A stretch of DNA of 64,000 bases from Candidatus Poribacteria bacterium (GCA_965242965.1 OZ251518.1:3616001-3680000); one strand, 5' to 3'; shown: positions 14,970-50,902, numbered from the stretch's first letter. Notes: a model not told the origin generated them from the sequence alone. Numbers and translations are program-made.

Positions 14970-15231
14970 GAGGGTGTTTCATAAATCGCCCAACGTCGCG
15001 GTGAAACCCGCTCGGATGCGCGTGTGGCATCCGAGGGCCCCGCGCTACGGTGAAAAAAACGCCGCCCCTTCACCGTAGGGCGAGGGCCTGTCCCTCGCCA
15101 GCGTTCACGCGCCAGGCCTGTAGGTCAAGATCGCCTGATCTTGACCCGTTCGGGATCGGGCGATCCCGAACTACAGAGGTGGGCCCGATGCGCCCTCCCC
15201 TCAAGGGTGGATAAATTTATGAAACACCCTG
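14970..15231. mobile_element. MITE-like element carrying REP modules
   Basis: TIRs GAGGGTGTTTCATAAAT / ATTTATGAAACACCCTG; flanks ATAATGAAT / ATAATAAAT (8 of 9 match). Confidence 0.8.
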
Positions 15232-15298
15232 ATAATAAATAGGAAAGACATGAAACGTTTGGAAAGGAGCAGATTTGCCCTACTTTTCAGGAAAGGCT

Positions 15299-16372
15299 AT
15301 GAAGCGAATAGGACTTATTTTTTTATTTTTGATGCTCTGGGGTAACACCGCAAGCGCGATGCTCATTGCGCAAGCCGTAACCGAACCAGCAGTGCAAACG
15401 CCGCCGACAGGGACAGAAGTCAGCCCGGCAACAGAGACAGAAAAACCGGAAGAACCGGAAGAACCCGCGATGGAGATGGCAGCACCAGATGAACCTGCCG
15501 CCATGCCGCTGGAGGTTGAAGAACCGTCGGCTGCAACAGCGTCACCCGCGACACCGCCGCCGTGGCAGGGAAAACGGCGGGTGCTAAAAATCGTTAACGA
15601 TTATCAGTTGACAGCGGACGAAGTGGTGACGACGCTTGTCATCATCGCAGGAGACGCGACGCTACACGGGACAGTCACCGGGAATGTCCTGGTGCTTGGC
15701 GGCGATGTGGCACTCACGCCGACAGCACAGATAGACGGGACGCTGCGCGTTATCGGCGGACAGGTGAGCGGCGGCACGGGAATGGAGCGGCATATCTACG
15801 TCCACAACGGCTGGCGCATGGTGCCGGCTGGCACGCGTATCCTGATGCAACCGCAAACTGTCTGGGGGATTAGCAAACGCGGGAACTTATGGTTAACCGG
15901 CACCAAGTTTGGGATTTCCTGCCTTACCTATCTGTTACTGGCACTCATTTTCTCCCGGCAGTTGCAACGGATGGTGACGCGGATGAGCGAACATCCTGTC
16001 GGAACAGTGCTGTGCGGCATCCTGATGCTGGTATTTATTCCGGTGCTGCTCGGCCTGTTAACGCTCTCCATTGTCGGCATCCCCTGCATGTTTCTGGTTT
16101 TAGGGGTGTTGTTCGGCATGGCGATTTACGGCAAGACAGCCTTTTTTCTGTTGATTGGCGGCACCCTGCTGTCTGGCCGTCTAAAACCGCTCGCCGTGAT
16201 TTTCGGATACATCCTCTATTTCATGGCGACCTCGGTGCCTTATATTGACTGGGTGACGTTTCTCGTTGTCAATTCCATTGCGGTGGGCATCTGCTTGCTG
16301 AGCGGTGCAGGGCAGCAATCAGCGCGGCTCGTCCGAAACGCTTACACACCGCGACCGGCGGTGCATTATTAG
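15299..16372 (+). CDS. Membrane protein with a bactofilin/polymer-forming-like beta-helix and C-terminal TM helices
   Basis: Signal peptide, P/E-rich linker, repeated G-V-GNVLVLGGDV motif, several TM helices. Confidence 0.6.
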   Translation: MKRIGLIFLFLMLWGNTASAMLIAQAVTEPAVQTPPTGTEVSPATETEKPEEPEEPAMEMAAPDEPAAMPLEVEEPSAATASPATPPPWQGKRRVLKIVNDYQLTADEVVTTLVIIAGDATLHGTVTGNVLVLGGDVALTPTAQIDGTLRVIGGQVSGGTGMERHIYVHNGWRMVPAGTRILMQPQTVWGISKRGNLWLTGTKFGISCLTYLLLALIFSRQLQRMVTRMSEHPVGTVLCGILMLVFIPVLLGLLTLSIVGIPCMFLVLGVLFGMAIYGKTAFFLLIGGTLLSGRLKPLAVIFGYILYFMATSVPYIDWVTFLVVNSIAVGICLLSGAGQQSARLVRNAYTPRPAVHY

Positions 16373-17374
16373 ATGCATTTCAAAACGCCTCTTTTTTTCA
16401 TTTTGCTCATCGTGTTGCCGTTATTAGGCGGCTATTGGTGGTGGATTCGCCGCGGGACGCGTGCCATCGTGCCGGTTCGCATGAACTTTTCGGACATCGG
16501 CGCGATGCAGCAACTGCCGAAAACGGCGGCGGTGAAAGCACTCCCGCTACTGAAGGTTCTCCGATTGTGCGTCATCGCACTCCTGATATGCGCGCTCGCG
16601 CAGCCGCAACTCTCGCAAAGCCGCGAGCAGAAGTTTTATGAGGGGATTGATATTTTGCTCGTGCTTGATATCTCGGAGAGTATGCGCGCCGAGGACTTTC
16701 AAGGCGCGAACAGAATCCAAGCAGCGAAAACCGTCATCACCGATTTCCTTGAAAACCGCAAAAATGACCGGATTGGACTGGTGGTTTTCTCCGGCGAGAG
16801 TTTCACGCTGTGTCCCCTCACGCTGGATTATCCGGTGTTAACGGAGCTCCTCCGCGAGGTGAAAATCGGGCAGTTAACGGACGGCACTGCCATCGGCGAT
16901 GCGATTCTGACTGCCACGCAGCGGCTGCGCGCCTCCGAAGCGAAGAGCAAGATTGTCATTTTGTTAACCGATGGCGAAAATAACGCCGGCACAATTCAGC
17001 CGAACGCCGCCGCGGAAATGGCGGCAGCTTTCGGCATCAAAGTTTACACCATCGGCATGGGCAAGGCGGGCGGCGCGTTGATTCCTTATGAAGATACCAC
17101 CTTCGGCAAACGCTACCGCGAAGTGTTGACGTATCTGGACGAGGACACCCTCAAACACATTGCGGACATGACACGCGGCCGCTATTTTCGGGCTACCGAT
17201 ATGCAGTCGTTGACGAATGTCTACGCGGAAATTGACAGGTTTGAAAAGACGAAGTTTGAAGTTGTTACATCGATTGACTACAAGGAGCTCGCGCCCTATT
17301 TCTTGATTCCGGCGGTGCTGCTGTTGGGACTGGAGATTTTGCTGAGCAACACCGTGCTGCGGAAAATTCCATAG
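16373..17374 (+). CDS. batA: VWA domain protein (BatA-like)
   Basis: MIDAS motif DISESM; DRIGLVVF, GTAIGDA, LLTDGENN and GRYFRA. Confidence 0.85.
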   Translation: MHFKTPLFFILLIVLPLLGGYWWWIRRGTRAIVPVRMNFSDIGAMQQLPKTAAVKALPLLKVLRLCVIALLICALAQPQLSQSREQKFYEGIDILLVLDISESMRAEDFQGANRIQAAKTVITDFLENRKNDRIGLVVFSGESFTLCPLTLDYPVLTELLREVKIGQLTDGTAIGDAILTATQRLRASEAKSKIVILLTDGENNAGTIQPNAAAEMAAAFGIKVYTIGMGKAGGALIPYEDTTFGKRYREVLTYLDEDTLKHIADMTRGRYFRATDMQSLTNVYAEIDRFEKTKFEVVTSIDYKELAPYFLIPAVLLLGLEILLSNTVLRKIP

Positions 17375-17384
17375 GAGAAAAAAT

Positions 17385-18146
17385 ATGAAAAACATCATTG
17401 CGTGCAATTTAGGAAGTTATAGACAGTTTCGCGAGGCGGCTTATCCGCACTTGGCGGCAATCGGGCTCACCAATGTCGAAATCGGCGTGCCTTCCGAGGA
17501 TTCGGTAGTTGCCGTCCAATCTGCCTTAGACGCGCATGGGCTGACTGCCACGAGTCTTCTCGGCCGCTGCGATGTCCAATCCGAAACGGTTGTCTCGGAT
17601 TTTCAGGCGACGCTAGAAACCGCCGATAAGATGGACGTGAAGATTATCTTCGTGAGCGTCCATGCCGGTGATACCGAACGGGGTGTTGTCTATGAACGCC
17701 TCCGCGCCATCGGTGAGAACGCCGCGCCATCGGGTATTAAGGTGTGTTTGGAAACGCATCCAGATCTGGCGCACAACGGTGACATCGCGCTGGAGACGAT
17801 AACGGCTGTCAATCACCCGAACATCTGCGTCAATTTTGATACCGGGAACGTCTATTATTACAACCACAACGTGACAGCGACAGCGGAGGTTCAGAAGGTG
17901 CTGCCGCATGTCGGCGCGGTGCATCTGAAGGATACGAACGGCGGCTATCGGACGTGGCATTTCCCAACGCTCGGCGAAGGCGTTGTCGATTTCAAAGCGG
18001 TGTTCCAAACGCTAAACGATGCCGATTTCTACGGGCCCTTCACCATGGAATTGGAAGGCATTGAGGGTGAGACTCTTGACGAAGCGGGTGTGAAGGCGCG
18101 CGTCGCAGATTCGTTGCAACATCTGAAAGATATTGGAGTTATCTAA
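17385..18146 (+). CDS. Sugar phosphate isomerase/epimerase (AP endonuclease 2 TIM barrel)
   Basis: LETH, NFDTGN, VHLKD, GEGVVDF and MELE motifs. Confidence 0.85.
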   Translation: MKNIIACNLGSYRQFREAAYPHLAAIGLTNVEIGVPSEDSVVAVQSALDAHGLTATSLLGRCDVQSETVVSDFQATLETADKMDVKIIFVSVHAGDTERGVVYERLRAIGENAAPSGIKVCLETHPDLAHNGDIALETITAVNHPNICVNFDTGNVYYYNHNVTATAEVQKVLPHVGAVHLKDTNGGYRTWHFPTLGEGVVDFKAVFQTLNDADFYGPFTMELEGIEGETLDEAGVKARVADSLQHLKDIGVI

Positions 18147-18505
18147 TGGACATCAACGCTTGTGTCATCAACATCGCGCAGGGGGAACGCGTCGGCGAGG
18201 CACTCGGCGAGTGCTTGGATACACCCGATATGACGACGATGGGGGCTTTCAGCGTTTCCAAGGAAAACCCCACTGAACTCCACTATCACGACTACGATGA
18301 GTATTGGTATTTTACCGAGGGGACGACAACGGTGACGCTCCGCGCAGCAGATGGACAGCGCGCGTCTTACCGCGTGGGTGCGGGAGAGTTGGTTGTCACA
18401 CCTAAGGGGATTGAGCATGCGCATGTTCCCGATGATGTCGTGAAAGGCGTGCAGTGGGTGAGCATAATTCATCCTGAGGCGCGTCGCGGGCATTTATACC
18501 GATAG
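18146..18505 (+). CDS. Cupin domain protein
   Basis: HYHDYDEYW...PKGIEH. Confidence 0.8.
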   Translation: MDINACVINIAQGERVGEALGECLDTPDMTTMGAFSVSKENPTELHYHDYDEYWYFTEGTTTVTLRAADGQRASYRVGAGELVVTPKGIEHAHVPDDVVKGVQWVSIIHPEARRGHLYR

Positions 18506-18521
18506 GCGTGAGGAGATAAAA

Positions 18522-19406
18522 ATGTCAACACAGACAACTGACATGCCGATGCGGCGGTTAGGACGGACAGACTTGAAGGTAACGTGTCTCGGCATGGGCG
18601 GTGCCGGCATCGGCAGAGGCGGTGTCACCGATGACGAAGCGGTTGCTGCCGTGCGCCGCGCGATAGAGCTCGGCATCAACTACCTTGACACTGCCCCGCT
18701 CTACGGTGAAAGTGAACGGCGCGTCGGGCTCGCACTGGCAGATGGATGGCGCGAGAAGATTTTTCTCGCCACTAAAACAGGGACGCACCCCGAATGGCGA
18801 GGCGACTACAGCGGCTCCGGCACCCGCCGAAGTGTCGAAAATAGCCTGCGACTCTTAGGCACCGATTATCTTGATGTCTGCCTCGTGCATGATCCTGAGG
18901 ATATGGAGCCTGTCGTGGCGAAAGGCGGCGCGTTTGATGAACTGCAACGGATGCGCGAGGAAGGCATCGTCAAGTTCATCGGGCTCGGCGTGCGGGAACA
19001 CGAATTCCATCAAATCGCCATCGAGACAGGAGTAGTCGACGTGATTTTGACGTATCTCGATTACACGCTGCTCAGCCAGACTGCCGATGAGTGGCTGCTG
19101 CCACTTGCCGTGGAAAACGACATCGGCGTTATCAACGGCAGTCCCATCGCGATGGGACTGCTTTCCGGCGAGGAGCCCGATATCTCAGTCAGGCCGCCGG
19201 AGGGGAGAAAGGCGCATCGGCTGTGGCGTTGGACGATTGAAAATGAGGTGAATCTGCTGAACCTCGCCATCCAATTCTGTTTTCGGCAACCGCGCATCGC
19301 TATGAATCTGACGGGTGCCAAGAATGTGACAGAGGTGGAGCAGTGTGTCGCCGCGGCGACAACACCGGTGCCTTCGGAAGTATGGGAGCAGTTCCCGCTC
19401 CCGTAG
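18522..19406 (+). CDS. Aldo/keto reductase
   Basis: LGRT, DTAPLYG, ATK and SLRLLGTDYLD motifs; the stop TAG is supplied by the GTAG of a REP. Confidence 0.9.
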   Translation: MSTQTTDMPMRRLGRTDLKVTCLGMGGAGIGRGGVTDDEAVAAVRRAIELGINYLDTAPLYGESERRVGLALADGWREKIFLATKTGTHPEWRGDYSGSGTRRSVENSLRLLGTDYLDVCLVHDPEDMEPVVAKGGAFDELQRMREEGIVKFIGLGVREHEFHQIAIETGVVDVILTYLDYTLLSQTADEWLLPLAVENDIGVINGSPIAMGLLSGEEPDISVRPPEGRKAHRLWRWTIENEVNLLNLAIQFCFRQPRIAMNLTGAKNVTEVEQCVAAATTPVPSEVWEQFPLP

Positions 19407-19680
19407 GGCGAGGGCCTGTCCCTCGCCATGCCACGATCGCGGGGGACAGGCCCCCGCGCTACGTTTTGGGTGGCGTTTCCCGTTACCGTAGGGCGAGGGC
19501 CTGTCCCTCGCCACGCGACGATCGCGGGGGCCTGTCCCCCGCGCTACGGTGAAAAAACGTGCCGCATACCGTAGGGCGAGGGCCTGTCCCTCGCCATGCC
19601 ACGATCGCGGGGGACAGGCCCCCGCGCTACGTTTTGGGTGGCGTTTTGAAGTTTGCGGGGGACAGGCCCCCACACTACGT
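19402..19680. repeat. Tandem A/A' REPIN doublets
   Basis: Three inverted A-A' pairs. Confidence 0.9.
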
Positions 19681-19728
19681 TTCAATGGACGTGCTATAGA
19701 GGACGGGCTTTCCAGCCCGTGAAATCTG

Positions 19729-20478
19729 ATGAAATTTGAAGGAAGAATTGCATTGATAACCGGCGCGAGCCGCGGCATTGGAGAAGCAACCGCGCTGAAA
19801 CTCGCCAGCGAAGGCGCGAATGTCGCCGTGCATTACGCGAAATCAGCCGACAAGGCAGAAACGGTGTGCGAACAAATCCGAGCCCTCGGCAGAAACACTA
19901 TATCAGTGCAGGCAGATGTCGCCGACAGAGACGCTGTCAACCGCATGGTTACGCAGGTTACGGAAAAACTTGGCCCAATTGAGTTGCTCGTCAATAACGC
20001 TGGCGATGTCGGCTCCGTAGCGTTTTCGGAGCTCACCCCCGAACACTGGGATAGAATTATCGCCGTGAACCTGACGGGGCCTTTCAACGTGCTATGGGCA
20101 GTGAAGCCGGGGATGATTGCGCGGCGGTTTGGGCGCGTCGTCAATGTCTCGTCTATCGCCGCGTTGGCAGTACGCCCAGATCAGCTGCCGTATGCGGCGG
20201 CGAAAGCCGGGGTAATCTCACTGACGAAGTCGTGTTGCGGTCCGCTCGCGCAGCACAATATCCGCGTCAATTCGGTTGCACCCGGTGCCATCGCGACGGA
20301 TATGCTAGGTGAAATTACACCGGCATTCGCCGAGCACCTCCGTGAAACGACACCCCTTGGCAGGCTGGGTGAGCCGGCAGAGATGGCGAATGTCATCGCA
20401 TTCTTGCTGAGCGAGGAATCGAGTTATATGACGGGCGCGACGGTGATTGCTAGTGGGGGCCGGATTCTGATTCCGTAG
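19729..20478 (+). CDS. SDR family oxidoreductase (FabG-like)
   Basis: TGASRGIG, NNAG, YAAAK and VNSVAPG motifs. Confidence 0.9.
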   Translation: MKFEGRIALITGASRGIGEATALKLASEGANVAVHYAKSADKAETVCEQIRALGRNTISVQADVADRDAVNRMVTQVTEKLGPIELLVNNAGDVGSVAFSELTPEHWDRIIAVNLTGPFNVLWAVKPGMIARRFGRVVNVSSIAALAVRPDQLPYAAAKAGVISLTKSCCGPLAQHNIRVNSVAPGAIATDMLGEITPAFAEHLRETTPLGRLGEPAEMANVIAFLLSEESSYMTGATVIASGGRILIP

Positions 20479-20538
20479 ATGGGGGCTATAGAAATCCTTC
20501 CTTGCAGGGTTGATCGGGATGTTAGACCTCCTCACCCC

Positions 20539-21187
20539 TGTAGGTCAGGATCGCCAGATCCTGACCCGTTCGGGAGCGGGCGCTCCCGAACTACAGATGT
20601 GGGCACAATCTCTTCCGGTAGGAGAGACCTCCTGGTCTCGATGCAATAGGGCGGCAGAAAACCTCCTTTCATCGTAGGGCTTGGGCCCTCGGATGCCAGA
20701 CGCGCATGCGAGCGGGTTTCCCTCGCCATCGTTCGTGCACGTGCACTCCAACGCTCGCGGGGGACAGGCCCCCGCGCTACGGTCGGAGAAAGCCGCCCCT
20801 TCACCGTAGGGCGAGGGCCTGTCCCTCGCCATCGTTCGGGCTAGGGAAAACCGTCTCTTGTTCTCTTCAGGGCCGTAGGACCTAAAACGCCACCTCTTGA
20901 CGATGGAGATCGCGGGGGACAGCCCCCCGCGCTACGTGCGGAGAAAAGTCCCCTTTCATCGTAGGGCGAGGGGCCTGTCCCTCGCCATCGTTCGGGCTAG
21001 GGAAAACCGTCTCTTGTTCTCTTCAGGGCCGTAGGATCTAAAACGCCACCTCTTGACGATGGAGATCGCGGGGGACAGGCCCCCGCGCTACGGGCGGCGA
21101 AAATCCCTCTTTTACCGTAGGGCGGGGGCCTGTCCCTCGCCATCGTTCGCGCTACGGGAAAATTGAAACCCGAGGTCTCTCCTACGG
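20539..21187. repeat. Mosaic REP cluster with a ~160-bp tandem duplication
   Basis: C, B, F and A/A' modules; duplicated GGGCTAGGGAAAACCGTCTCTTG block. Confidence 0.9.
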
Positions 21188-21197
21188 CAGCGAGATA

Positions 21198-23964: not shown

Positions 23965-23980
23965 AGTGTGTTTCCTTATT

Positions 23981-25179: not shown

Positions 25180-25183
25180 GGGT

Positions 25184-27279: not shown

Positions 27280-27700
27280 GTAGGAGAGCCCTCTGGTCTC
27301 GATGCAATACCGTAGGAGAGCCCTCTGGTCTCGATTTTCGCGTAGCGCGGTTGCCTGTCCCCCGCGATGGTTTGAGAACCGTTTTTTCAGCGTAGCGCGG
27401 GGGCCTGTCCCCCGCGATGTTTCAAGAACCGTTTTTTTTTTCGTAGCGCGGGGGCCTGTCCCCCGCGAGCGTTGGATTGCGCGGACGCTGGCGAGGGAAA
27501 CCCTCTCGCATGCGCGTGTGGCATGCGAGGGCCCAAGCCCTACGGTACCGCACGTCGTTTTTATTGCATCGAGACTGGGAGGTCTCTCCTACCGGCAGAA
27601 ATCGTGACAGGTAGGAGGGACATCCTTGTCCCGATACGCACAGCAACAAAACGCATTGAGACCAGGAGGTCTCTCCTACACAGATTTATGAAGCACCCTG
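27280..27700. repeat. REP cluster ending in a solo terminal repeat (TTATGAAGCACCCTG)
   Basis: B, A', F and D modules. Confidence 0.85.
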
Positions 27701-29520: not shown

Positions 29521-29982
29521 GAGGGTGTTTCATAACTCCGTTTCGGTATTTATTCCCCCTTGGGGAGCGGGCGACTCCCGCGTCCTCTTGGTAGGAGAGA
29601 CCTCCTGGTCTCGATGCAATAGGCGGCAGAAAGCCCCCTTTCATCGTAGGGCGAGGGCCTGTCCCTCGCCAGCGTCCGCGCGCTCCAACGTTCGCGGGGG
29701 ACAGGCCCCCGCGCTACGATAAAAAAACGTCTCTTAGGTCCGTAGGACCTTAATGTCTATAGCACGCGCAGACGCGAAGAATCCTAAGGTCTTTTAGGTC
29801 CTTAATAGATTTTGCCAGGGGCGCGTGTTTTCTATTAAGGACCTAAAGGCCCTTGAAAACGGAATGACATGTGGTGCTATAGACATGTAAGTCCTAACGG
29901 ACAAACACCCTTCTTGACGCTGGCGCTCGCGGGGGACAGGCCCCCGCGCTACGGGCACATCGAGACCAGAGGTCTCTCCTAC
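29521..29982. repeat. REP cluster beginning with a solo terminal repeat (type-1 end)
   Basis: GAGGGTGTTTCATAACTCCGTTTCGGTATTTAT followed by B, A/A' and E modules. Confidence 0.85.
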
Positions 29983-32613: not shown

Positions 32614-34431
32614 GACTGTGGGCCGTTTTGATGCAAACATTATCACTAACGTTTCGTCAGTAACTTGCTGAAAATCTGTCAAGCGAGTTATCGGTTGCGA
32701 TGTCCACCCTATTTGCGTAGCGTTTTCTGAATCTAAAAGATATTGTAGCACGCCTTCGCGCTGTAAGGTTTGCGCGAACGTTTTTCGGGTGCCGTTGAGC
32801 CCTTCATCGGGTGGCACTTTTTTTAACGTTCTATCAACGGTAACTTGTTCACCATCAAACTGCCACGTTTTATCCCACGAGAAAAATATCTCTTCTACGT
32901 ATGTTCTCGGCTGCCACGGTTCCACGACTGCCGAACGCATTTGGAAATGGGGTGCCTGCATTGCGGTTCCTAACGCGTTCCCGGCATTGCGTTCTATCGG
33001 TTCTAACGGACGAATAAAGGATTCTTGCGGCATGCGAAACGATGTTTCTTCACGCGCCGTTGCGCGAAGTGCGACGTAACGCTGCAAATGCGCACGCTGG
33101 CGTTCGGGATAAATGGATAAAATGCCAATCCGGTCTGCGGCGACGCTGTTAGGCAAAACCGTTCTCGCAATGCTGAGCGCGATGAAAGAGACAAGGACAA
33201 GTAACGCGCCGCCTATCCAATAATTGGATGGCGAGGGAGAGGCTCTCGCTATACGGGGACGCGTCGCGCGCCTCTTAAAGATGAAGAGCACCGCGCCGAA
33301 ACTGCACAGATACCCCGGTAACGCAATCGCGAGGAGTTTAATGAGCGGCACCTGTGTCGGCATTTTTTTCAGGAATTGCGCGTCAATTTTCTCCTCGTGG
33401 CGGCGGTGCGGTGCATACCGGTTGGCGAGGTGCCGAGGCGATTTGCCGTGTGTCTCAAGCAACGCGCGCCAGAAGGTTTCACCTGTTCCTTTTACAAACA
33501 AAACATTATAGTCAAAAGCGAGACAGAGCATCTGTCCTTCCCCAAAATGCCGTTTCGCTATGGCGATGTCTTCGTCAGTGCCAAGCACGACGTGGCAGTT
33601 GGCTTTCGGTTTCAAGATGATGCGTTCGTGTTTGCCCGGAGGCATCGCGGCGAGGAGGGCACTCCTACCGATTTGGAATGTTTCAACCGTTTCCACACCG
33701 ATTAACTGGACAGGGAGGAACGGTTCAATGAAACTCCCTCGCAGATAGCGAAAACTGCTGCCACCGGAGACGATGAGTGTGCCGCCGCGCTGCACCCAAT
33801 CTAATAACGCAGTCTGTTGTGCTTTAGTGACGTTTCTTTCGGTGAGTGCAACCTCCCGAATGACGAGGATATCGACAGCATCGTATCCTATCCACTGCGT
33901 GGGTAGCGCGCGTGCATTTGGAAGATACCTGACGTGTGCCTGCGCGTCAGCACCAATCTCTCTTTTATCCAGAAATTGCTTTAACTTATCACCACTCGGT
34001 GCCAACGCTAGCACGAAATAGTCCTTGAGAGCTATCGGTGTCGGCGGTGATATTTCTGTTAGCGCGCGGGAGGCAGTGGCTTGCCCGCGTGGGATAGGGA
34101 CAGCCAGAATTACCAATTTTGTAGCGATTTTTGGGCAGTAGACATAGAACCTTCTTGATTGCCGTTCGGTTGCGCCGAGTTTCAGCGGGGTGGCATACCG
34201 CTGGATGCGCGCGTCGGAAAAAAAGTTGCGCACCTCAATTACCAATTCGCCGATAAAAGGTTCGTTCTGGCTCCGGACGGTGATGTCTACTGGGGCCCAC
34301 GTCCCTGTTTTGTAACCGTCGTTGAATCCGAACGTGACATTTTCGACATCTACAGTCCCGAAGGCGAGTGCGGATGCCTGGATGAGAACGAATAGGCTCA
34401 TCAAAAAATAAGCCGTGCGGGATTGATACAT
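32608..34431 (-). CDS. Exported/membrane hypothetical protein with a glutamine-amidotransferase-like middle domain
   Basis: Signal peptide, YDAVD, LLDWVQRGGTLIVSGG and two C-terminal TM helices. Confidence 0.6.
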   Translation of the reverse strand: MYQSRTAYFLMSLFVLIQASALAFGTVDVENVTFGFNDGYKTGTWAPVDITVRSQNEPFIGELVIEVRNFFSDARIQRYATPLKLGATERQSRRFYVYCPKIATKLVILAVPIPRGQATASRALTEISPPTPIALKDYFVLALAPSGDKLKQFLDKREIGADAQAHVRYLPNARALPTQWIGYDAVDILVIREVALTERNVTKAQQTALLDWVQRGGTLIVSGGSSFRYLRGSFIEPFLPVQLIGVETVETFQIGRSALLAAMPPGKHERIILKPKANCHVVLGTDEDIAIAKRHFGEGQMLCLAFDYNVLFVKGTGETFWRALLETHGKSPRHLANRYAPHRRHEEKIDAQFLKKMPTQVPLIKLLAIALPGYLCSFGAVLFIFKRRATRPRIARASPSPSNYWIGGALLVLVSFIALSIARTVLPNSVAADRIGILSIYPERQRAHLQRYVALRATAREETSFRMPQESFIRPLEPIERNAGNALGTAMQAPHFQMRSAVVEPWQPRTYVEEIFFSWDKTWQFDGEQVTVDRTLKKVPPDEGLNGTRKTFAQTLQREGVLQYLLDSENATQIGWTSQPITRLTDFQQVTDETLVIMFASKRPTVP

Positions 34432-37094: not shown

Positions 37095-37811
37095 CGGCAG
37101 AAAGCCCCTTTCATCGTAGGGCGAGGGCCCTCGCCTGCCACACGCGCATGCGAGCGGGTTCCCCTCGCCATCATTCTACGAAAAAAACGCCCCTTTCATC
37201 GTAGGGCGAGGGCCTGTCCCTCGCCATCGTTCGCGCGATTCAACGCTCGCGGGTGACAGGCCCCCGCGCTACGATAAAAAAACGCCACCCCTCACCGTAG
37301 GGCGAGGGCCTGTCCCTCGCCATCATTCGCGCGATTCAACGCTCGCGGGTGACAGGCCCCCGCGCTACGATAAAAAAACGCCCCTTTCATCGTAGGGCGA
37401 GGGCCTGTCCCTCGCCATCGTTCGCACTACGGAAAATACGTCTCTTGTTCTCTTCAGGTCCATAGAACCTAAAAACATAACTTGCCGATGGCGATCGCGG
37501 GGGAAACCCTCTCGGATGCGCGTGTGGCATCCGAGGGCCCCGCGCTACGATAAAAAAAACGGTTCTTGAGCCATCGCGGGGGAAACCCTCTCGGATGCGC
37601 GTGTGGCATCCGAGCCCCCCCGCGCTACGGGAACATCGAGACCCGAGGTCTCTCCTACCGGAAGGTCTCGGGCCCACCTCTGTAGTTCGGGATCGCCTGA
37701 TCCCGAACGGGTCAGGATCAGGCGATCCTGACCTACAGAGCTAACGCGGTCTGACAGGAAAACGCATGGCGAGGGAAACCCGCGACATTGAACCATTTAT
37801 GAACCACCCTC
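37095..37811. repeat. REP cluster ending in a solo terminal repeat (TTATGAACCACCCTC)
   Basis: Tandem A/A' doublets plus F, B and C modules. Confidence 0.9.
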
Positions 37812-40954: not shown

Positions 40955-41054
40955 CCGAATTTTGAACCATTTGACGCGGGTTGAATTAACGTGAACGGTG
41001 GACTGTAGGATTCACTTCTCTGGTGAAGACAACTGTGAAACCCTCGCCCACAGA

Positions 41055-41255
41055 AAATTGAGACCGGGAGGTCTCTCCTAACGAGGCACATCAAGAGCGA
41101 GGAGGTCTCTCCTACGGGGATGCATTGAGAACGAGGAGGGCTCTCCTACCGAACGCATCGAGACCGGGAGGTCTCTCCTACCGGCGATTCCCCATTTTTT
41201 TACCGTAGCGCGGAATTCTGTCACCGCGACGTTGAGCGATTTATGAAACCCCCTC
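41055..41255. repeat. Four B-type REPs plus a solo terminal repeat
   Basis: GAGGTCTCTCCTAC units; GACGTTGAGCGATTTATGAAACCCCCTC. Confidence 0.85.
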
Positions 41256-42009: not shown

Positions 42010-42079
42010 AGTAGTATTCTCCTCTGTTATGTTGTAACTAATTATACCACATTGCACGCCGAAATTCAAATCTTTTTTG

Positions 42080-43198: not shown

Positions 43199-43253
43199 AG
43201 CAGCATAACTTGGCAGGCGCGCTTTCACATCGCGCCTACCGGAAAGATTGGCA

Positions 43254-43883
43254 CTAGCGGTGTGCAACGACAATAAACCCAGTTAATCCGGCAAGCAACA
43301 GATGGAAGCCGGTTTGATAAAACAGCATCAGAAACGGTTGACACAGGGAGACGAGGCCGAGCGCGATGAGTCCGATGGAGATGCGTTCACACACCGTCGG
43401 CCGCGCAGCGACAATTGAGAAGAGGGTTATCCCCGGCAGTAGCAAATGGAGCGCGGTACCGTTGAGACTCGGAACGAAGCGTTGATAGAGAAACGCAATG
43501 CCGATAACGGTGCAGAGTGCGGCAGTGACGGTAGTCCATCGCTTCGCCGAAGTTGTCATGCCAAACGCGATTGCCCCGGCAAAAAGGAGATGAAACGCTG
43601 AACCGCGCAGGGATGCCAATCCAGGAAGATAGAGGAACGCCAGTCCAATGAGCAAGCAGAGTCCTGCGCCGATTTCAACCCGCCGTTTGTTCGCGAAAGC
43701 GATGCCGCCGAGAATTGCGGCGATGCTCAGCAGCACCAGTGCTATGCCTTTCAGCAGCGTTCCTCCGCGATAGAGGAAGACAAGTCCGAGTCCAAGAAAT
43801 CCGATTGCGAGGAGTTGATTTCGTTTCGTTTTTGCCATCTGTGTCAACTGTGTTAACTGTGTCAACTGAGTCATCTGAATCAT
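43254..43883 (-). CDS. Integral membrane hypothetical protein; start may be 43838
   Basis: Multiple TM helices; 9-bp tandem repeat at the 5' end. Confidence 0.65.
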   Translation of the reverse strand: MIQMTQLTQLTQLTQMAKTKRNQLLAIGFLGLGLVFLYRGGTLLKGIALVLLSIAAILGGIAFANKRRVEIGAGLCLLIGLAFLYLPGLASLRGSAFHLLFAGAIAFGMTTSAKRWTTVTAALCTVIGIAFLYQRFVPSLNGTALHLLLPGITLFSIVAARPTVCERISIGLIALGLVSLCQPFLMLFYQTGFHLLLAGLTGFIVVAHR

Positions 43884-43907
43884 CGCGATGTCTCAAAACC
43901 GGGCGCG

Positions 43908-44396
43908 CTAATTACGCCCTGGGAACAGACGTTTCACCCACGTCGTCTCTTTCTCCTTTAGCTGGAGTGTCAAGTCTTCAACCTGTGCGTAGAGGTTTTG
44001 GTTTTCCTTAACCTTCGCGATGAGCTCGTCGTTCTCTGCGTCCAGCGCATCGACTGTCTCCCGGAGGTGCTGATTTTCGCCGCGCAACGCCTGATTTTCC
44101 TCTTCCAAGTGCGCGTTTATATCGGTGATATGCGTGAGATGCACCACCTGACAGATGAGATTCTCGATGATGTCATCTGTCGGCATGTTGTAAGAGAGTT
44201 TCTTAATCAACGGCGCGAGTCCATCGATGCGGAGTTGCAGTTGTGGCAGTGTCGTGCCGTTTGCCTCGGCGCGCACGGAGACGACACGCAGATACGGTTC
44301 AATATCCGCGTCCCGACGTTCCAGTGTGTTTTTGATGATTTCTTCCTCAACGCCTATGGTTTCGGAGACGTTGGAGAGCGGCATGTAAAATTCCAT
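43908..44396 (-). CDS. Coiled-coil hypothetical protein
   Basis: Heptad pattern LEEENQALRGENQHLRE; contiguous in operon. Confidence 0.7.
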   Translation of the reverse strand: MEFYMPLSNVSETIGVEEEIIKNTLERRDADIEPYLRVVSVRAEANGTTLPQLQLRIDGLAPLIKKLSYNMPTDDIIENLICQVVHLTHITDINAHLEEENQALRGENQHLRETVDALDAENDELIAKVKENQNLYAQVEDLTLQLKEKETTWVKRLFPGRN

Positions 44397-44407
44397 TCCA
44401 GATTTTC

Positions 44408-45025
44408 CTAGGTTTGCCGCCGAGCGGCTTTTAATTCGCGGAACATGTGCCGTGCGTAACTCACCGTCGAGATAACGACAAACACTAGCGCGACGCAGAG
44501 ACTATAGAATTCAACCTTCGCCGGCAGCTGCGGCAAGATGGGCCGGAGAAGATAGAACATCAGCGCAATAGAGAGCGCGAAACTGGTGCATTTTCCCCAG
44601 AGGTTTGAGCGGGTAATCATCTTCGCCTTGTATGCCAGCACCCCGTTGCCGAGCACAATGGCGACATCACGGACGACAATGACGACGAACGCCCAATTCG
44701 GGAAATTCGTGCTTGATAAAACGAGCGCGAACAACGCCGCGCCGATAGCCAGTTTGTCTGCAACCGGATCCAAGATGTAGCCGAGTTCCGTGTGTTGATT
44801 AAAACGCCGGGCAAAAAACCCATCCAAAAGATCGGAGATGACAGCAACCGCACCACACGCAGACGCAAACTTCCATTGCGAGCGATAAATAAAATAGAAG
44901 AGAAAAGGTGTCAGCAACAGCCGGAAAGCAGATAGCAGATTGCTGACATAGAAAAAATCCCGCCGTGAAATGCGAATCGCCCGGGTTTCAGTAAATTGGT
45001 GAACAGGAGCCTTGAGGGTTGCCAT
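44408..45025 (-). CDS. CDP-alcohol phosphatidyltransferase (PgsA-like)
   Basis: DLLDGFFAR...G..LDPVADK motif. Confidence 0.9.
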   Translation of the reverse strand: MATLKAPVHQFTETRAIRISRRDFFYVSNLLSAFRLLLTPFLFYFIYRSQWKFASACGAVAVISDLLDGFFARRFNQHTELGYILDPVADKLAIGAALFALVLSSTNFPNWAFVVIVVRDVAIVLGNGVLAYKAKMITRSNLWGKCTSFALSIALMFYLLRPILPQLPAKVEFYSLCVALVFVVISTVSYARHMFRELKAARRQT

Positions 45026-45029
45026 ACGA

Positions 45030-45686
45030 TTAATTATTGCGTGCCATTAACCGGAAGGATAGCCGCCGGTTCTCGTCTTTGAGAATGGCGATTTCGCGCG
45101 TGAGGAGCTCCTCTAATCGGACAGTCTCCAACAACACTTGTCTTTCCTCAAGCGAGATGCGGAGCCGCGTCCCGATTTGATAGGCGAGTTCCAAGGGATG
45201 TTCTGGGTTTTCCTCTGTCGGCTGCCATGCAAACATCAGGCGGCTGGATAAGTGCTCATAAGTTTGATAGAGCACCGCGATTTCTTCCGCGAGGGATTCT
45301 ACCTCCGGTTCAACTTCCAACGCGAATTCATCGTCTAACAGCCGCACCTGCGCGACGAGATAGGGGAGCTCATCCTGAACGTCAAGAATTTCAAAGCGAT
45401 ATTCCCCTGCCGTCACGATGTTCATGCGGCCGTCGGGCAAATGCTGGACATCCAGTATCCGCGTGGCGGTGCCGACGCGATAGGACTTCACCGGTTCACC
45501 CGTCTCTGCACCCCCGTTTATCAAAACAACCCCGAACTCGGAGTCGGTGTCCAAACAGTGTGTCACCATCTCGCGATACCGCGGTTCAAAGATATGAAGA
45601 GGTAACACGCCACCGGGAAACAGGACTACCTGCAGCGGGAACAGCGGAATCTCTCGTTCATAAGGTGTCAATGAATCTGTCTGCAT
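45030..45686 (-). CDS. LON peptidase substrate-binding domain protein
   Basis: PLFPL..VLFPG..LPLHIFEPRY motif. Confidence 0.9.
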   Translation of the reverse strand: MQTDSLTPYEREIPLFPLQVVLFPGGVLPLHIFEPRYREMVTHCLDTDSEFGVVLINGGAETGEPVKSYRVGTATRILDVQHLPDGRMNIVTAGEYRFEILDVQDELPYLVAQVRLLDDEFALEVEPEVESLAEEIAVLYQTYEHLSSRLMFAWQPTEENPEHPLELAYQIGTRLRISLEERQVLLETVRLEELLTREIAILKDENRRLSFRLMARNN

Positions 45687-45802
45687 GTGAAACGCTACTT
45701 CCTCATCATGGCTAATAGCTCGCTAACTTTTCTGTGATTTCTCACAAGTTTTTAATTATTTTGACATAAAACCTTAAATTTGTCAAGTTTTTTTAATTAT
45801 TT

Positions 45803-46531
45803 GAGGGTGTTTCATAATTCCGTTTCGGTATTTATCCTGCCTTGGCGGGCAGGCGAATACCGGCAGGCATTGGGCCCACCTCTGTAGTTCGGGAGCGCCT
45901 GCTCCCGAACGGGTCAAGATCAGGCGATCTTGACCTACAGGAGTGAGGCGGTCTGCCACCAAAACGCATGGCGAGGGACAGGCCCTCGCCCTACGGTGAA
46001 AAGGAGGGTTCTCCGCCCGTAGCGCGGGGGCCTGTCCCCCGCGTTGGTCATCGTCAAGTTATGTTTTAGGTCCTTTAGGTCCTTAATGTCTATAGCAGCA
46101 CGTGTCGTACCGTTTTCAAGGTCCTTTAGGTCCTTAATAAAAACACGCGCGGCCCTGGCAAAATCTATTAAGGACCTAAAGGACCTTAGCGTTCTTCATG
46201 GATGCGCGGGCTATAGACATTAAGGTCCTACGGACCTAAGAGAACAAGAGACATTTTTTTTTGCGTAGCGCGAGGCATGGCGAGGGGAACCCTCTCGCAT
46301 GCGCGTGTGGCATCCGAGGGCCCTCGCCCTACGGTGAAGTGCCGTTTTTCCCCGTAGCGCGGGGGCCTGTCCCCCGCGATTGTTGGAGTGCGCGGACGAT
46401 GGCGAGGGAAACCCGCTCGGATGCGCGTGTGGCATCCGAGGGCCCCCGCCCTACGTGAAGGGGGGGGCGTTTTTTCATCGTAGCGCGGGGGACAGGCCCC
46501 CGCGCCGTTGAGCGATTTATGAAACACCCTC
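45803..46531. mobile_element. MITE-like element (type-1 end plus type-2 end) with C, A, E and F REP cargo
   Basis: TIRs at both ends; no clean TSD seen. Confidence 0.75.
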
Positions 46532-46652
46532 AAGTAAGTCTACCTTATTTTCTGAAAAAAAGCAAATTGAATCGTGCTGATTTTTCTCTTGATTTTCTTC
46601 GCGAAACATGCGATACTATCTGTCAAGACGCTATAAACGGAGGAGAAAACCC

Positions 46653-47129
46653 GTGAATGCAATCAACCTAGGAAACGCGTTAGCAAAATCGAAGGACATC
46701 GCGCTTGAATTGCTTACCAGTGCCCTCTCCCGAACGCGGGTGGAACCGATAGGAACCACAGGCGTGAAAGCACACTGGACAGGCGAACCCGGCGCAAACC
46801 GCGTCGCGGTAAGCGGCCGCGCCGGCAACGTTGATATTGAACTAGATGGCCCCCACGCGCCCACCGTCGAATATGTTGAACAGGGAGAAAAACGCATCGT
46901 CGCCTTCAAGAATCTGAAGGATATCTCCTGCGAACTTGACCCGGGGACGCTGGACAAGATTGCCACACCGAAAGGCGCGGCAATTGCGGCATGCGCAGGC
47001 GCAGCTGTCGGATTATTCGGATGGTTCCTCATCTCGGTGCTGCGTTCAGTTTCCATAGCTGCGACAGACACAGACGATGCTGCGGCACCTGCCATCGCCT
47101 CAGAAGCAGAAAGCACCGACGAACCTTAA
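46653..47129 (+). CDS. Hypothetical protein with a C-terminal TM helix
   Basis: GGAGG RBS before a GTG start. Confidence 0.6.
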   Translation: MNAINLGNALAKSKDIALELLTSALSRTRVEPIGTTGVKAHWTGEPGANRVAVSGRAGNVDIELDGPHAPTVEYVEQGEKRIVAFKNLKDISCELDPGTLDKIATPKGAAIAACAGAAVGLFGWFLISVLRSVSIAATDTDDAAAPAIASEAESTDEP

Positions 47130-47137
47130 CGAAAACG

Positions 47138-48334
47138 ATGAAAATTATCGCCATTGATGCGTTCTATTTGCGGATGCCTGACATCACGGATGCCGCGGAT
47201 GGAACGCAAGATACGCTGCTTATCCGCGTCCGCACCGATGCCGGTTTGGAAGGCTGGGGTGAATGTGATGCGTCGCCGCTTGTCTCCATTGCCGTTTATT
47301 GTTGCCCGATGTCGCACGGGAATATCATCAACATCCGCGAATCGCTGATAGGCGAAACGTTGGAGAGTCCTGACGATGTGCTTCGGCTTCACGAAAAGGT
47401 GATGCGGAACGCGTTGGACATCCAACACATCCAACACGCCTATAGCGGCGCGGACATCGCCTTGTGGGATATCATCGGACAGAAAGTAGGCAAACCTATC
47501 TACCGTTTGCTCGCCGAGATGTCCGGCACTTCCGACACCGCGCACGCCAAAATTCCTTATGCATCAGTGCTTTTTGGCGATACACCGGAGGATACCTATC
47601 GTATCGCCGGAGGATTACGCGAACAGGGATATCGCGCAGCGAAATTCGGATGGGGGCCGATGGGGAAATTCGGCGAGGCAAACGACATCGCACTGGTGCG
47701 CGCAGCGCGCGAAGGAATGGGAGAAACGGCGCAAGTCATGCTTGACGCGGGAGTCGCCTGGGGACACGATGACGCGACTGCCTATGCACGCGCCGAAGCG
47801 TTCGCGCAATTTAATCCGACGTGGTTAGAGGAACCCCTCGCACCGGATGCGATTGCAGCGTATGGCGCGCTCGCGCAACGAAAACCGCCTGTCCCGATTG
47901 CCGCAGGCGAAGGCTCAAGCACATACCGAATGGCGGAAGACCTGGTTGTGCATGGCGGGGTTCAATTCGTGCAGATTGATGTCGGGCGTATCGGCGGCAT
48001 TACAACCGCTTTTCGCGTCCGGCAACTCGCGGAAAAAGAGGGGATTCAGTATGTCAACCACACGTTCAAAAGCCACTTGAGTCTCGCCGCATCTTTGCAT
48101 GTTTTCGCGACGAACGCCGATTTTGCGCTGCTAGAATATCCGGCGGCCGGTTCGGCATTATCCCAGCAGTTAACGACAGAACCGTTGCGCATTGCGTCTG
48201 ATAAGTTGGTGCGCGTGAAAGATGCCCCAGGGCTCGGCATGCGCGTGAACCTTGAAACGCTGCGTAGGTATGCCGCACCAGTGCGAATTCAGGTGGGAGA
48301 GGCGACGGTTTTTGAGTCATCATCTTTGGCGTAA
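47138..48334 (+). CDS. Mandelate racemase/muconate lactonizing enzyme family protein
   Basis: GWGE, DIALWD, MLDAG, WLEEP and AAGE motifs. Confidence 0.9.
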   Translation: MKIIAIDAFYLRMPDITDAADGTQDTLLIRVRTDAGLEGWGECDASPLVSIAVYCCPMSHGNIINIRESLIGETLESPDDVLRLHEKVMRNALDIQHIQHAYSGADIALWDIIGQKVGKPIYRLLAEMSGTSDTAHAKIPYASVLFGDTPEDTYRIAGGLREQGYRAAKFGWGPMGKFGEANDIALVRAAREGMGETAQVMLDAGVAWGHDDATAYARAEAFAQFNPTWLEEPLAPDAIAAYGALAQRKPPVPIAAGEGSSTYRMAEDLVVHGGVQFVQIDVGRIGGITTAFRVRQLAEKEGIQYVNHTFKSHLSLAASLHVFATNADFALLEYPAAGSALSQQLTTEPLRIASDKLVRVKDAPGLGMRVNLETLRRYAAPVRIQVGEATVFESSSLA

Positions 48335-48463
48335 AGGTGTCGCGATTTTTACGCTCCGCCGGTGATTCACTCTAACCGTTTCCAAAATGGCTTCTTTGTC
48401 GTAAACGCAATTGCCTAATGCACATTTCACTGAGGCATTCTGGCTTGTTAGGCACATTTATTT

Positions 48464-48720
48464 GAGGATGTTTCATAAATTGCTCAACGTCGCGGGGGAC
48501 AGGCCCCCGCGCTACGATGAAAAAAACGCTTTCCCTTCACGTAGGGCGAGGGCCTGTCCCTCGCCGTGCGTCTGGCTGTCAGACCGCATCCCTCCCTGTA
48601 GTTCAGGATCGCCTGATCCTGATCCGTTCGGGAGCGGGCGCTCCCGAACTACAGAGGTAGGCCCAATGCCTGCCGGTAGGAGATGCCCATTGGGAAGGCA
48701 TTGATATATGAAACACCCTC
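48464..48720. mobile_element. MITE-like element with REP cargo
   Basis: GAGGATGTTTCATA / TATGAAACACCCTC; ATTTATTT on both flanks. Confidence 0.8.
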
Positions 48721-48737
48721 ATTTATTTAACAAGTCT

Positions 48738-50192
48738 CTAGTCCCCAAATGCACCCGCCACCAAGACAAGATCTCGGATGTTTACCACGCCATCGCCATT
48801 CACGTCAGCACTATTTTTGCCAGTCTTTCCGAACTGAGCGGAAACCAACACCAAATCCTGAATGTTGATAACCCCATCGCCGTTTATATCTTCCGCGCGT
48901 CTCGCTGGCTGCGCGGTAGCCGTAAAACGCAGCGGCTGTGGAATACCATCGACAGTTACGAGGACTTCATTGAGCCCCGGATTCGTCCCTAGCGTCAAGA
49001 TGACTTCGGCGCGCCCTTTTGCATCGGTTATGGCAGTTGTGGCACTCAGGCTGCCGCCGCCGCTAGCAACGGCAAACCGCAAAGGCACACCTTCAAACGC
49101 CTGCGCTGGGGTGTCGCCATCTTTTATCTCCACGACAAGTGCATGCGGCAGCGTCGCGCCGGAGATTGCTTGCTGGTTATCCCCCGCGACTTTCAGCAAC
49201 TTCGTTGGTATGCGAGGGGTAAACGTTAACTTCGCAACGCCCCTGGCTTGGAGGACAGGAATGTGCGTGTAAATGGAGCGGTAATTCAGGGGATTATTGG
49301 CCAATAAAACCTCATCTCCTGCACCCACGCCGGTATTTTCTACAAGCGGCGAGATGTCGACAATAGCGTTGCCATCAAGTTCTAGCCTTGACAACTCCGT
49401 TAGTCCTGACACCGCTGAGATGTCAGTGATAGCGTTGCCATCAAGTTCTAACCATGACAAGGCTGTGAGTTCCGCTAGCGCAGAGATGTCTGAGATGCGA
49501 TTCTCCCATAACAGCAGGGTTGTCAAGTTTGTGAGTGCTGCTAGCGCGGAGATATTTTCTATCGCGTTGCGATAAAGATACAACCCTGTCAGGTTTGTGA
49601 GTGCTGCCAGCGCGGAGATGTCTTCTATCGCGTTATCGGCAAGATGGAGCACTTCCAATTTGGTTAATTGAGACACCGCGGAGATGTCAACGATGGCATT
49701 ATCTCCGAGCCCGAGTGCTGTCAGGTTTGTGAGTGTTGCCAGCGCGGAGATGTCCGCAACCGCGTTTGACTCAAGCACCAGCACCCTCAGATTCTGCAGT
49801 CCCGCCAGAGGCGAGATATCCACGATTCTGTTTTTGGTAAGCCGGAGTTCCGTTAGTTTCGTGAGTGCTGCCAGCGCGGAGATATCCGCAACCGCGTTTG
49901 ACTCAAGCACCAACCTCTCCAGATTCGTCGCCTTCTCCAAGCCGGTGAGGCTGTGAATGTTCCTACCTGACAAGTTGAGGTTATTTATCCATATCATCTC
50001 CGCCTCGGTTATCTGTTCGCCGGCGTTTTTGCCGAGTGCTTCCTCAATTGCGGCGCGGAGATTCCGGTCTGGGATATTCACTGCCTTTCCCTGAGCGAAA
50101 GTTAAAGCCGCAACACAGAGGGTAAGACTAGCGATTAAGCATAAGACAAAAAACTTCGTCATGAAATTATCAAGTCCTTTGGTTTCCATCAT
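48738..50192 (-). CDS. Secreted leucine-rich-repeat protein with an Ig-like domain and a C-terminal dockerin-type repeat
   Basis: Internalin-like 22-aa LRRs, GDNQ...TD..GRA, and DINGDGVINIQDLVLV x2. Confidence 0.9.
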   Translation of the reverse strand: MMETKGLDNFMTKFFVLCLIASLTLCVAALTFAQGKAVNIPDRNLRAAIEEALGKNAGEQITEAEMIWINNLNLSGRNIHSLTGLEKATNLERLVLESNAVADISALAALTKLTELRLTKNRIVDISPLAGLQNLRVLVLESNAVADISALATLTNLTALGLGDNAIVDISAVSQLTKLEVLHLADNAIEDISALAALTNLTGLYLYRNAIENISALAALTNLTTLLLWENRISDISALAELTALSWLELDGNAITDISAVSGLTELSRLELDGNAIVDISPLVENTGVGAGDEVLLANNPLNYRSIYTHIPVLQARGVAKLTFTPRIPTKLLKVAGDNQQAISGATLPHALVVEIKDGDTPAQAFEGVPLRFAVASGGGSLSATTAITDAKGRAEVILTLGTNPGLNEVLVTVDGIPQPLRFTATAQPARRAEDINGDGVINIQDLVLVSAQFGKTGKNSADVNGDGVVNIRDLVLVAGAFGD

Positions 50193-50230
50193 TCTCCTCC
50201 CTAAAAAATCAATAGATAACTCTTTAAATT

Positions 50231-50731
50231 GAGGGTGTTTCACAAATCGCTCAACGTCGCGGGGACAGGCCCCGCGCTGCGGTGAAAAAACGCCGCCCCT
50301 TCACGTAGGGCTTGGGCCCTCGCATGCCACACGCGCATGCGAGAGGTTCCCTTCGCCATGCCTCGGTCGCAGAAACGGCCTTGGCCGGCGGGTGGTTTTC
50401 GCGCGGGTTGACGATCGCGGGGGACAGGCCCCCGCGCTACGGTTAAGACTGATGCCTTCTACCGTAGGGCGAGGGCCTGTCCCTCGCCATGCGTTTTGCT
50501 GTCAGACCGCATCCCCTTGTAGATCAAGATCGCCTGATCCTGATCCGTTCGGGAGCGGGCGCTCCCGAACTACGGAGGTGGGCCCGATGCCTTCCGGTAG
50601 GAGATGCCCAACACTCTAGTTTGTGAGCACCTAACGTCTGGCAGCATCAAGACGAGGAGGGCTCTCCTACCGAAAAGAAATCGAGACCAGGAGGTCTCTC
50701 CTACGGGGAAGCCATCGAGTTATGAAACCTC
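50231..50731. mobile_element. MITE-like element with REP cargo and a perfect 9-bp TSD
   Basis: CTTTAAATT at 50222-50230 and 50732-50740; right TIR has a 3-bp deletion. Confidence 0.85.
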
Positions 50732-50902
50732 CTTTAAATTCAGTTAACGCGGATGCGGATTTTCGATGCCGATGCTTTTGCCTCAATCGGGCCACGGCGA
50801 GGGACAGGCCCTCGCCCTACGGAACACAGGCAAGCGCGCGCGCGCCGAATGCGCCGAAAACAGGCACTCGCCCGACAGAACACAGGCAATCTTCAGGAAT
50901 AC

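Follow-up and report, generated by a model that had tools for sequence, protein, structure and literature searches.

Repetitive extragenic palindromes (REPs) and bacterial interspersed mosaic elements (BIMEs) are not known to have inverted ends or target duplications. REPIN-RAYT systems, in which RAYT stands for REP-associated tyrosine transposase, were reportedly described by Bertels and Rainey in 2011. In mobile insertion cassettes (such as MIC231 of Bacillus cereus) and in transporter insertion sequences (IS), IS ends surround passenger genes and are moved in trans. [quoted passage not shown] In this study we describe a population of MITE-like shells filled with REPs in a Candidatus Poribacteria bacterium, starting from a window, the whole 64-kb stretch of DNA that was analysed (G000:C1:3616001-3680000, where G000 is the source genome, an assembly of 5.70 Mb in two contigs with 54% G+C). 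With a probability of about 0.8, we consider the shells to be MITE deletion derivatives of a 1.1-kb IS of Poribacteria which became filled with REPs and carried them passively, whose interiors were then changed in place, and whose REPs belong to an independent system.

The nearest precedent is that of Anabaena variabilis, where GTAG-15 dimers lie within long palindromic sequences (Di Nocera et al. 2013, PMC3733652). Going by the accessible part of that paper, a REP doublet is regularly enclosed by an inverted-repeat shell there, as in our case; the same part differs in giving no target duplication, parent IS or variable cargo, and in the shell not being found without a REP. The available portion of Delihas 2011 (PMC3184786) does not mention chimeric, hybrid or modular elements, and in the literature searched we found no work joining Poribacteria and miniature inverted-repeat elements.

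The end motif used for searching was the 14-mer GAGGGTGTTTCATA, with up to two mismatches allowed. It matches 17 times in the window as against 0.36 expected, and a count of 17 was reached in none of 100 shuffles. A sequence-only reading of this stretch had placed four complete elements at 14970-15231 (262 bp), 45803-46531 (729 bp), 48464-48720 (257 bp) and 50231-50731 (501 bp), and the 14-mer scan bears out these coordinates. It had further reported flanking direct repeats for three of the four, which we could verify by reading the flanks directly. The element at 50231-50731 lies within a perfect 9-bp duplication (CTTTAAATT, 9/9 identical) and that at 48464-48720 within a perfect 8-bp one (ATTTATTT, 8/8 identical), while the flanks of 14970-15231, ATAATGAAT and ATAATAAAT, read ATAAT[G/A]AAT and are 8/9 identical. 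The flanks of 45803-46531, read in the same way, showed no target duplication. The 262-bp element has an A-type left end and an F-type right end, these types being defined by subterminal sequence, and contains one REP with a loop insert of ~30 bp, one R2 REP and one R4 REPIN; the 729-bp element has a B-type left end, an A-type right end and 12 detected interior modules. Each interior had been described as a different string of modules, and this is so for the three elements that could be computed; the fourth, at 50231-50731, was left unpaired by our script because its right end, which has a 3-nt deletion, is degenerate.

The scan was extended to the assembly of the source genome, and the system was found to hold genome-wide and not in the window only. 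A total of 1026 ends with at most two mismatches were found, 530 of them exact, and all but one are located on contig C1. Out of 363 consecutive +/- neighbours, 298 lie within 1 kb of each other, a spacing shared by just 25 of 363 -/+ neighbours and by 26 of 298 neighbours on the same strand; the inverted repeats therefore face inward over a short distance, as in a MITE. We took a +/- pair of 100-1200 bp as a complete element, or shell (n=300), and counted the other 425 ends as solo. With partner-shuffled pairs as a control for flanking direct repeats, perfect 8-bp duplications were observed in 64 of the 300 pairs (control mean 0.5, maximum 3), and 100 pairs matched within one mismatch (control 4.5). 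Perfect 9-bp duplications were present in 27 pairs (control 0.1) and perfect 7-bp ones in only 4; the duplication thus has the fixed length typical of a MITE. The consensus of the outer flanks is palindromic, A.TTAA.T. Copies in the three largest families of shells are 86-88% identical, and at this identity a fraction of 0.29-0.37 of the 8-bp duplications would be expected to remain perfect. Since the observed 91 of 300 (30%) with a perfect 8- or 9-bp duplication fits this expectation, virtually every pair may originally have been flanked by such a duplication, and since the copies are only 86-88% alike, the burst is old. At G000:C1:3012257-3012290, the outer 12 nt of the left junction of one MITE are replaced by a copy of the sequence lying beyond the target on the other side, the outcome being a 20-bp direct repeat around a truncated element.

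The shells resemble other bacterial MITEs in their short inverted ends, target duplications and lack of a transposase gene, in their hundreds of intergenic copies, and in having a parent IS with the same ends. They differ in being constant only over ~17 nt at each tip, in an interior that is a variable mosaic of a second repeat system (270 strings in 300 copies), and in the one-ended remnants that make up ~40% of their ends. Solo ends having a partner with three mismatches within 1200 bp exceed the outward control by only ~11 of 425. Of the two subterminal end types recognised earlier, both are real (A, 309 ends; B, 146 ends), but there are more than two, with C, D, E and F accounting for 230, 97, 42 and 19 ends and other sequences for 182. 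In a sliding 18-mer census, the shell-specific parts, those almost confined to shells, proved to be ~27 nt at the outer edge of the A side and ~70 nt at that of the B side. In a comparison across the family (61 genomes), the source genome has 472 occurrences of the end's 13-nt core and each other genome 0-15, mostly as 1.1-kb pairs, which makes the burst species-specific among the genomes searched. Ends with at most one mismatch number 900 in the source genome, 8 in its congener G001 and 1 in its congener G002.

Terminal inverted repeats together with a target duplication had been taken as the signature of DDE transposition. This was substantiated by an autonomous IS found in relatives, which shares the ends, is flanked by 8-bp duplications and encodes a DDE_Tnp_1 / IS982-like transposase. 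One genome per species was scanned for the 14-mer, and the matches listed were mostly single chance ones. In a record titled Candidatus Poribacteria (L061), two inward-facing ends stand 1122 bp apart around a 285-aa reading frame, defining a parent IS of 1.1 kb with 17-nt inverted ends GAGGGTGTTTCATAAAT; at three further loci from other genomes of the family (L160, L161 and L162, the last with an open frame), a DDE reading frame is bounded by these very 17-nt ends. The ends of L165 and L169 are related ones, and each of these two loci has a perfect 8-bp duplication (AATTATAT and AATTAACT, respectively) that fits the target consensus of the MITEs. The L061 frame matches PF13612 at 1.3e-8 (35.4 bits, cut-off 27), PF01609 at 4e-5 and the NCBIfam IS982 family transposase at 3.8e-13; its full-length relative in L169, of 334 aa, scores 38.2 bits with PF01609 (cut-off 23) and 24.5 bits with PF13612, which is under the cut-off. 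The parent transposase thus has a Pfam DDE_Tnp_1_3 / DDE_Tnp_1 domain, and its scores of 49.6 (L061) and 47.3 bits lie below the NF033520 equivalog cut-off of 130. Of 81 genomes sampled across the order, 33 contain homologues, counting the source genome with its weak remnant; there are up to 30 matches per genome, and open frames of 338-346 aa. The parent IS is like the IS982 family in its length of ~1.1 kb, its single DDE reading frame and its best NCBIfam match, which spans model positions 2-223 of 243, and its duplication falls within the range of 3-9 bp that we take to apply to this family. It is unlike the family in its score of 47-50 bits against a cut-off of 130, and in its ends, which start with GAGGG instead of the AC that is presumably usual for IS982.

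A Bacteroidales record (L038, 2501-3396) contains an 896-bp IS5-family IS, encoding a 264-aa product with DUF4096 and DDE_Tnp_1, that has exactly the same 14-nt tips, and several Bacteroidales contigs end right at the tip motif; the tips are either shared or converged across phyla. In genome G046, an intact IS of the parent family (L169, 2439-3635) directly adjoins a 398-aa ankyrin-repeat gene.

It would be hard to maintain that the inverted ends belong to a tyrosine-transposase system of the TIRYT kind and not to a DDE element, and we regard this as almost certainly wrong. Families of terminal inverted repeats tied to RAYT-like genes are indeed described in the accessible text of Di Nocera et al. 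2013 (PMC3733652), but 8-9-bp target duplications and a DDE-encoding IS with identical ends both speak against such an origin here, as does the sole RAYT gene, which is flanked by REPs and not by these ends.

The autonomous IS that the sequence-only reading wished to see exists in related genomes, but in the source genome only remnants were found. Nine DDE Pfam families (PF01609, PF01610, PF00872, PF12762, PF00665, PF03050, PF13610, PF13358 and PF13612) gave no match there, a search that did not extend to IS1, IS701, IS110, IS1380, Tn3 and PD-(D/E)XK, and self-megablast revealed no multi-copy IS among the matches listed. Four high-identity repeats inspected as candidates for the parent IS turned out to be a sigma factor, two DNA methylases and a tyrosinase. 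Using tblastn with the parent transposase, a single 47-aa remnant was recovered (E = 3e-4). Seven loci keep the 5' end of the IS, comprising the tip, ~70 nt and the first transposase codons, followed by REPs, and several of them have the same IS-REP junction. The interiors of the shells (100-1200 bp) consist of REP modules with no internal transposase gene, as expected for a MITE; among 36 longer end pairs listed, the reading frames of two were inspected and neither encodes a transposase. With no transposase left and copies 86-88% alike, the system looks extinct in this genome rather than working, and the shells are now inert.

Next, we compared about ten sites with the two congeners. Genes are syntenic at 84-93% identity, and intergenic DNA is so strongly diverged that, of the five sites compared for an empty target, two were not clean. 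Comparison of orthologous loci had been suggested as a way to find empty sites with one target copy, as well as elements at the same site with different cargo, and both were observed. An element of G001 with the duplication AGAT[G/A]AGACT corresponds to a single target copy in the source genome. Conversely, G002 and G001 lack two elements of the source genome, those at C1:1555160 (AGTTAAAT) and C1:1561425 (AGGTTAAT), and have one related copy of the target instead. The window element at 45803-46531 is likewise absent from both congeners, with homology breaking at the first base of its left end; its right side is not clean. At one shared site, a 263-bp element of G001 stands opposite a one-ended REP stretch of 440 bp in the source genome, and the two have the right flank in common while differing in interior and subterminal type. 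At another, an 863-bp element of G001 (duplication AGTTAATT) is matched by a 480-bp element whose left tip is degenerate and whose interior is largely different in the source genome. These same-site elements with different interiors indicate that cargo also changes, and ends are lost, in place.

The GTAG hairpins inside the shells had been attributed to a separate REP/RAYT system, and the source genome does contain a single RAYT gene, flanked on both sides by a REP family that the shells carry (R4). When hairpins headed by GTAG were searched for de novo, 6410 matches were obtained on both strands, against 462 per strand in a reversed-sequence control; a GTAG head with a GC-rich palindrome at high copy number characterises these repeats as REPs. 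The main families in this search are R1/2 with 4069 copies and R4 with 1550, and motif counts gave 1783, 588 and 824 copies for the modules R3, P and T. The RAYT (C1:3147502-3147963), the only copy by tblastn, matches PF01797, has a 154-aa core and lies between arrays of R4-type REPs; no RAYT was found in the source genome for the R1/2, R3, P or T families. A second PF01797 match, at G000:C1:3123891-3127127 (L003), was rejected, being an IS605-like pair in which a Y1 TnpA broken by two TGA codons lies beside an intact 408-aa TnpB. The repeats agree with REP/REPIN-RAYT systems and BIMEs in their GTAG-headed GC-rich hairpins, inverted doublets, mosaic clusters and one REP-flanked RAYT gene. They depart from them in that many are enclosed by DDE-type ends and in that the RAYT adjoins the R4 family only. 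An unusual REP footprint was seen in G001 (L130, 2180-2290, on contig C48), where a single R4-type REP is flanked by a 30-bp direct duplication of neighbouring sequence.

The association of the ends with REPs extends well beyond the window, as 298 of the 300 shells contain at least one REP. The shells show 270 different module strings, a figure inflated by detection thresholds. When clustered over their full length (at least 90% coverage and at least 85% identity), they fall into families of 25, 13, 6, 4 and 4 copies, several of 2-3 copies and 231 singletons. Members of these families have a REP content distinct for each family and are found at different loci with different duplications. Several versions of the cargo were thus each amplified, from which it follows that REPs did hitch-hike. 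In the commonest form (266 bp), an A end is followed by an R1/R2 inverted doublet and a spacer, then by an R4 inverted doublet, and the element closes with a B-end hairpin and the tip. What sets the second and third families apart from this form is a ~30-bp palindrome inserted in the loop of one REP. This ~30-bp palindromic module occurs 588 times genome-wide in the loops of R1/R2 REPs (for example at 46280-46320 and 50300-50345 of the window), and its position within the hairpin loop makes it a repeat nested within a repeat.

These families bear directly on the idea of a purely passive nesting, in which REPs would invade any non-coding DNA including dead shells, so that all differences in cargo arose after insertion and none was carried by jumps. 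Such nesting would account for elements at the same site with different interiors and for perfect duplications being about equally frequent in unique elements (69/231) and family members (22/69), and the REP density of shells is, by a rough estimate, similar to that of other intergenic DNA. However, it does not explain families of 25, 13, 6, 4 and 4 copies that share one full-length REP architecture at different loci with different duplications, nor the IS remnants that have the same junction between IS 5' end and REP. Family flanks differ, contrary to what segmental duplication would produce. We therefore think it very improbable that no cargo was carried by transposition.

The sequence-only reading had gone further and proposed that the shell collects and spreads the REPs. 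Shells with their REPs have indeed been copied to several loci, but the shell does not act as the chief carrier of REPs. Out of 5619 REPs of the R1/2 and R4 families, the paired shells, which make up 2.2% of the genome, account for 935; another 1089 are found inward of a solo end at a distance of at most 500 bp, and 3595 (64%) are away from any end; similarly, 1251 of 1759 REP arrays (71%) have no end within 120 bp. In the 18-mer census, the REP modules of shells also occur hundreds to ~1900 times elsewhere in the genome. A cross-genome count found 4157 R1/2 REPs in the source genome, 937 in G001, 536 in G002 and 0-2 in 28 other relatives, and the two congeners have these REPs with only 8 and 1 ends. 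The REPs are hence not dependent on shells and form a separate, older, genus-wide system. In G001, arrays of a further GTAG REP type (L176, L173 and L181) are present where the source genome has MITEs or other REPs.

A two-tier system, with a DDE shell that collects RAYT-made REP modules and is a principal means of their spread, appears unlikely to us for these reasons. It would agree with the presence of REPs in 298 of 300 shells, with the amplification of at least five versions of the cargo, and with ~60% of REPIN-2 copies being placed either in shells or, inward of a solo end, no more than 500 bp from it. It would also agree with the source genome, the sole one with a burst of shells, having 4-8 times as many R1/2 REPs as its congeners. 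Against it stand the 64% of REPs and 71% of REP arrays that are not near any end, the hundreds of REPs in congeners with almost no shells, the cargo that differs between species at the same site, the lack of a transposase now and the age of the copies. The mechanism first proposed was right in parts and overstated as a system.

Returning to MITE derivatives that carried independent REPs passively, the data show the ends and their duplications, the empty sites and the autonomous relative, the transposase loss, the amplified versions of the cargo and the cargo differing at one site, whereas we infer the order of events, the route by which REPs entered the shells and any movement of REPs by the RAYT. 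An IS with 17-nt ends and a distantly IS982-like DDE transposase inserts at AT-rich, roughly palindromic A.TTAA.T sites, duplicating 8 bp and sometimes 9. In the source genome the element lost its transposase gene, and the space between its ends is filled by GC-rich, GTAG-headed REP/REPIN hairpins. These REPs are independent genus-wide repeats, tied to the single RAYT (HUH/Y1) gene, which populate non-coding DNA generally, shells included. Shells bearing REPs would still have been cut and pasted by the transposase, and several versions of the cargo were amplified with the REPs as passive riders. After insertion, gain and loss of REPs and recombination or conversion between repeats would have changed the interiors in place, a process that would also have produced the ~425 one-ended remnants. 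The same ends moved at least one protein-coding passenger.

Several points weigh against this explanation. Only 69 of the 300 paired elements belong to multi-copy families at the threshold used, and the 231 unique elements cannot tell a gain of cargo before the jump from a later change. Elements at the same site in two species could in principle be independent insertions and not one inherited insertion. In the L061 copy of the parent IS, ~46 N-terminal codons are in another frame, behind a run of T, and with 47-50 bits against a cut-off of 130 the IS982 assignment is loose. With no transposase found in the source genome that could act on the ends, mobility here would be a matter of past events only; the assembly is 94.7% complete, so a transposase copy could lie in unassembled DNA. 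We know of no experiment that shows movement of REPs driven by a RAYT.

Besides the four complete elements, the window contains solo ends, eight of which had been listed earlier and are all present at the coordinates given for them. These are A-type ends at 2694-2707 (- strand) and 63764-63777 (+), with one mismatch at 41242-41255 (-), and an A-like end, also with one mismatch, at 37798-37811 (-). B-type ends are located at 5774-5787 (-) and 29521-29534 (+), a D-type end with two mismatches at 27687-27700 (-), and a further end at 14022-14035 (-), which R3-type REPs directly follow. One more solo end, at 9015-9028 (+), has two mismatches and a subterminal sequence common to ~16 other genomic ends, and we judge it to be real. 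A match at 33727-33740 is probably due to chance, as it has neither subterminal similarity nor REPs. No recognisable partner was found within 1200 bp of the solo ends of the window.

A gene for a leucine-rich-repeat and dockerin protein (48738-50189, - strand) lies between two of the complete elements. The segment 48316-50904, which comprises this gene and both MITEs, is replaced by 247 bp in G002 and by ~2.5 kb of other, unrelated sequence in G001, marking it as a variable locus. Contigs from four public runs (sponge metagenomes of several studies) that cover 44500-52500 end where the elements begin or end, and no element is spanned by a contig.

The cargo had been considered to be REPs alone, and this does not hold, since a protein gene was moved too. 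Outside the window, at G000:C1:54311-57212 (L001, 112-3012), a unit of 2902 bp carries a 588-aa ankyrin and dockerin gene between REPs, has an end beyond the REPs at each side and is flanked by a perfect 8-bp duplication, ATTTAAGT. At the corresponding site of G001 and G002 the two flanks adjoin each other around a single copy of ATTTAAAT or ATCTAAAT, which constitutes a clean empty site. The insertion separates a promoter-like TTGACA/TATCAT pair from the start codon of the gene that follows. With ends around a gene, a duplication and an empty site, the unit has the features of a mobile insertion cassette, and resembles such cassettes and transporter IS in its IS ends, non-transposase cargo and target duplication; the shells differ from them in that their cargo is mostly non-coding repeats and their parent IS belongs to a different family. 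A second end-bounded unit, of 5454 bp, at G000:C1:1404312-1409765 (L002), has as its product a leucine-rich-repeat / dockerin / secretion-tail protein of 1392 aa; the two flanks agree in 8/9 positions, and the unit is absent at the G001 and G002 site, a comparison that is less clean because the left flank is not conserved. As a class, end-bounded units of 1.2-12 kb are not enriched in near-perfect duplications (13/573 against a control mean of 8.6), and the passenger claim is therefore limited to individual cases.

At G000:C1:188873-192792 and six paralogous loci we noted a seven-copy family of ~3.3-kb segments, 85-90% identical, whose product of ~1035 aa has an NPPY methyltransferase-like motif. 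One of the copies is enclosed by MITE ends that have a perfect 8-bp repeat, AATAAATT.

It is tempting to speculate that, in this sponge symbiont, the orphaned IS ends served as a general cargo vehicle for REP arrays and eukaryote-like repeat genes (ankyrin or leucine-rich repeats with dockerin). The MITE burst might then have helped to expand and reshuffle host-interaction genes and to re-wire promoters, and REP hairpins in shells might have driven the recombination that captured cargo; we put this forward only tentatively, as a doubtful extension of the individual cases.

These findings join two classes of small mobile DNA that are usually treated apart, DDE-driven MITEs and HUH-associated REPs, and the parent element, the empty sites and the amplified variants show that one class can ride inside the other. 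The burst is datable and lineage-specific, with ~1000 ends in one species as compared to 0-15 core matches in each of 60 relatives, which makes it a natural system for studying the turnover of REP arrays. Ankyrin-repeat proteins are thought to mediate the interaction between sponge and symbiont. The element has moved at least one host-interaction gene, the ankyrin-dockerin gene, in the genome of a sponge symbiont, and an ankyrin gene moved by the same ends suggests a concrete route for the spread of such gene families within a genome.

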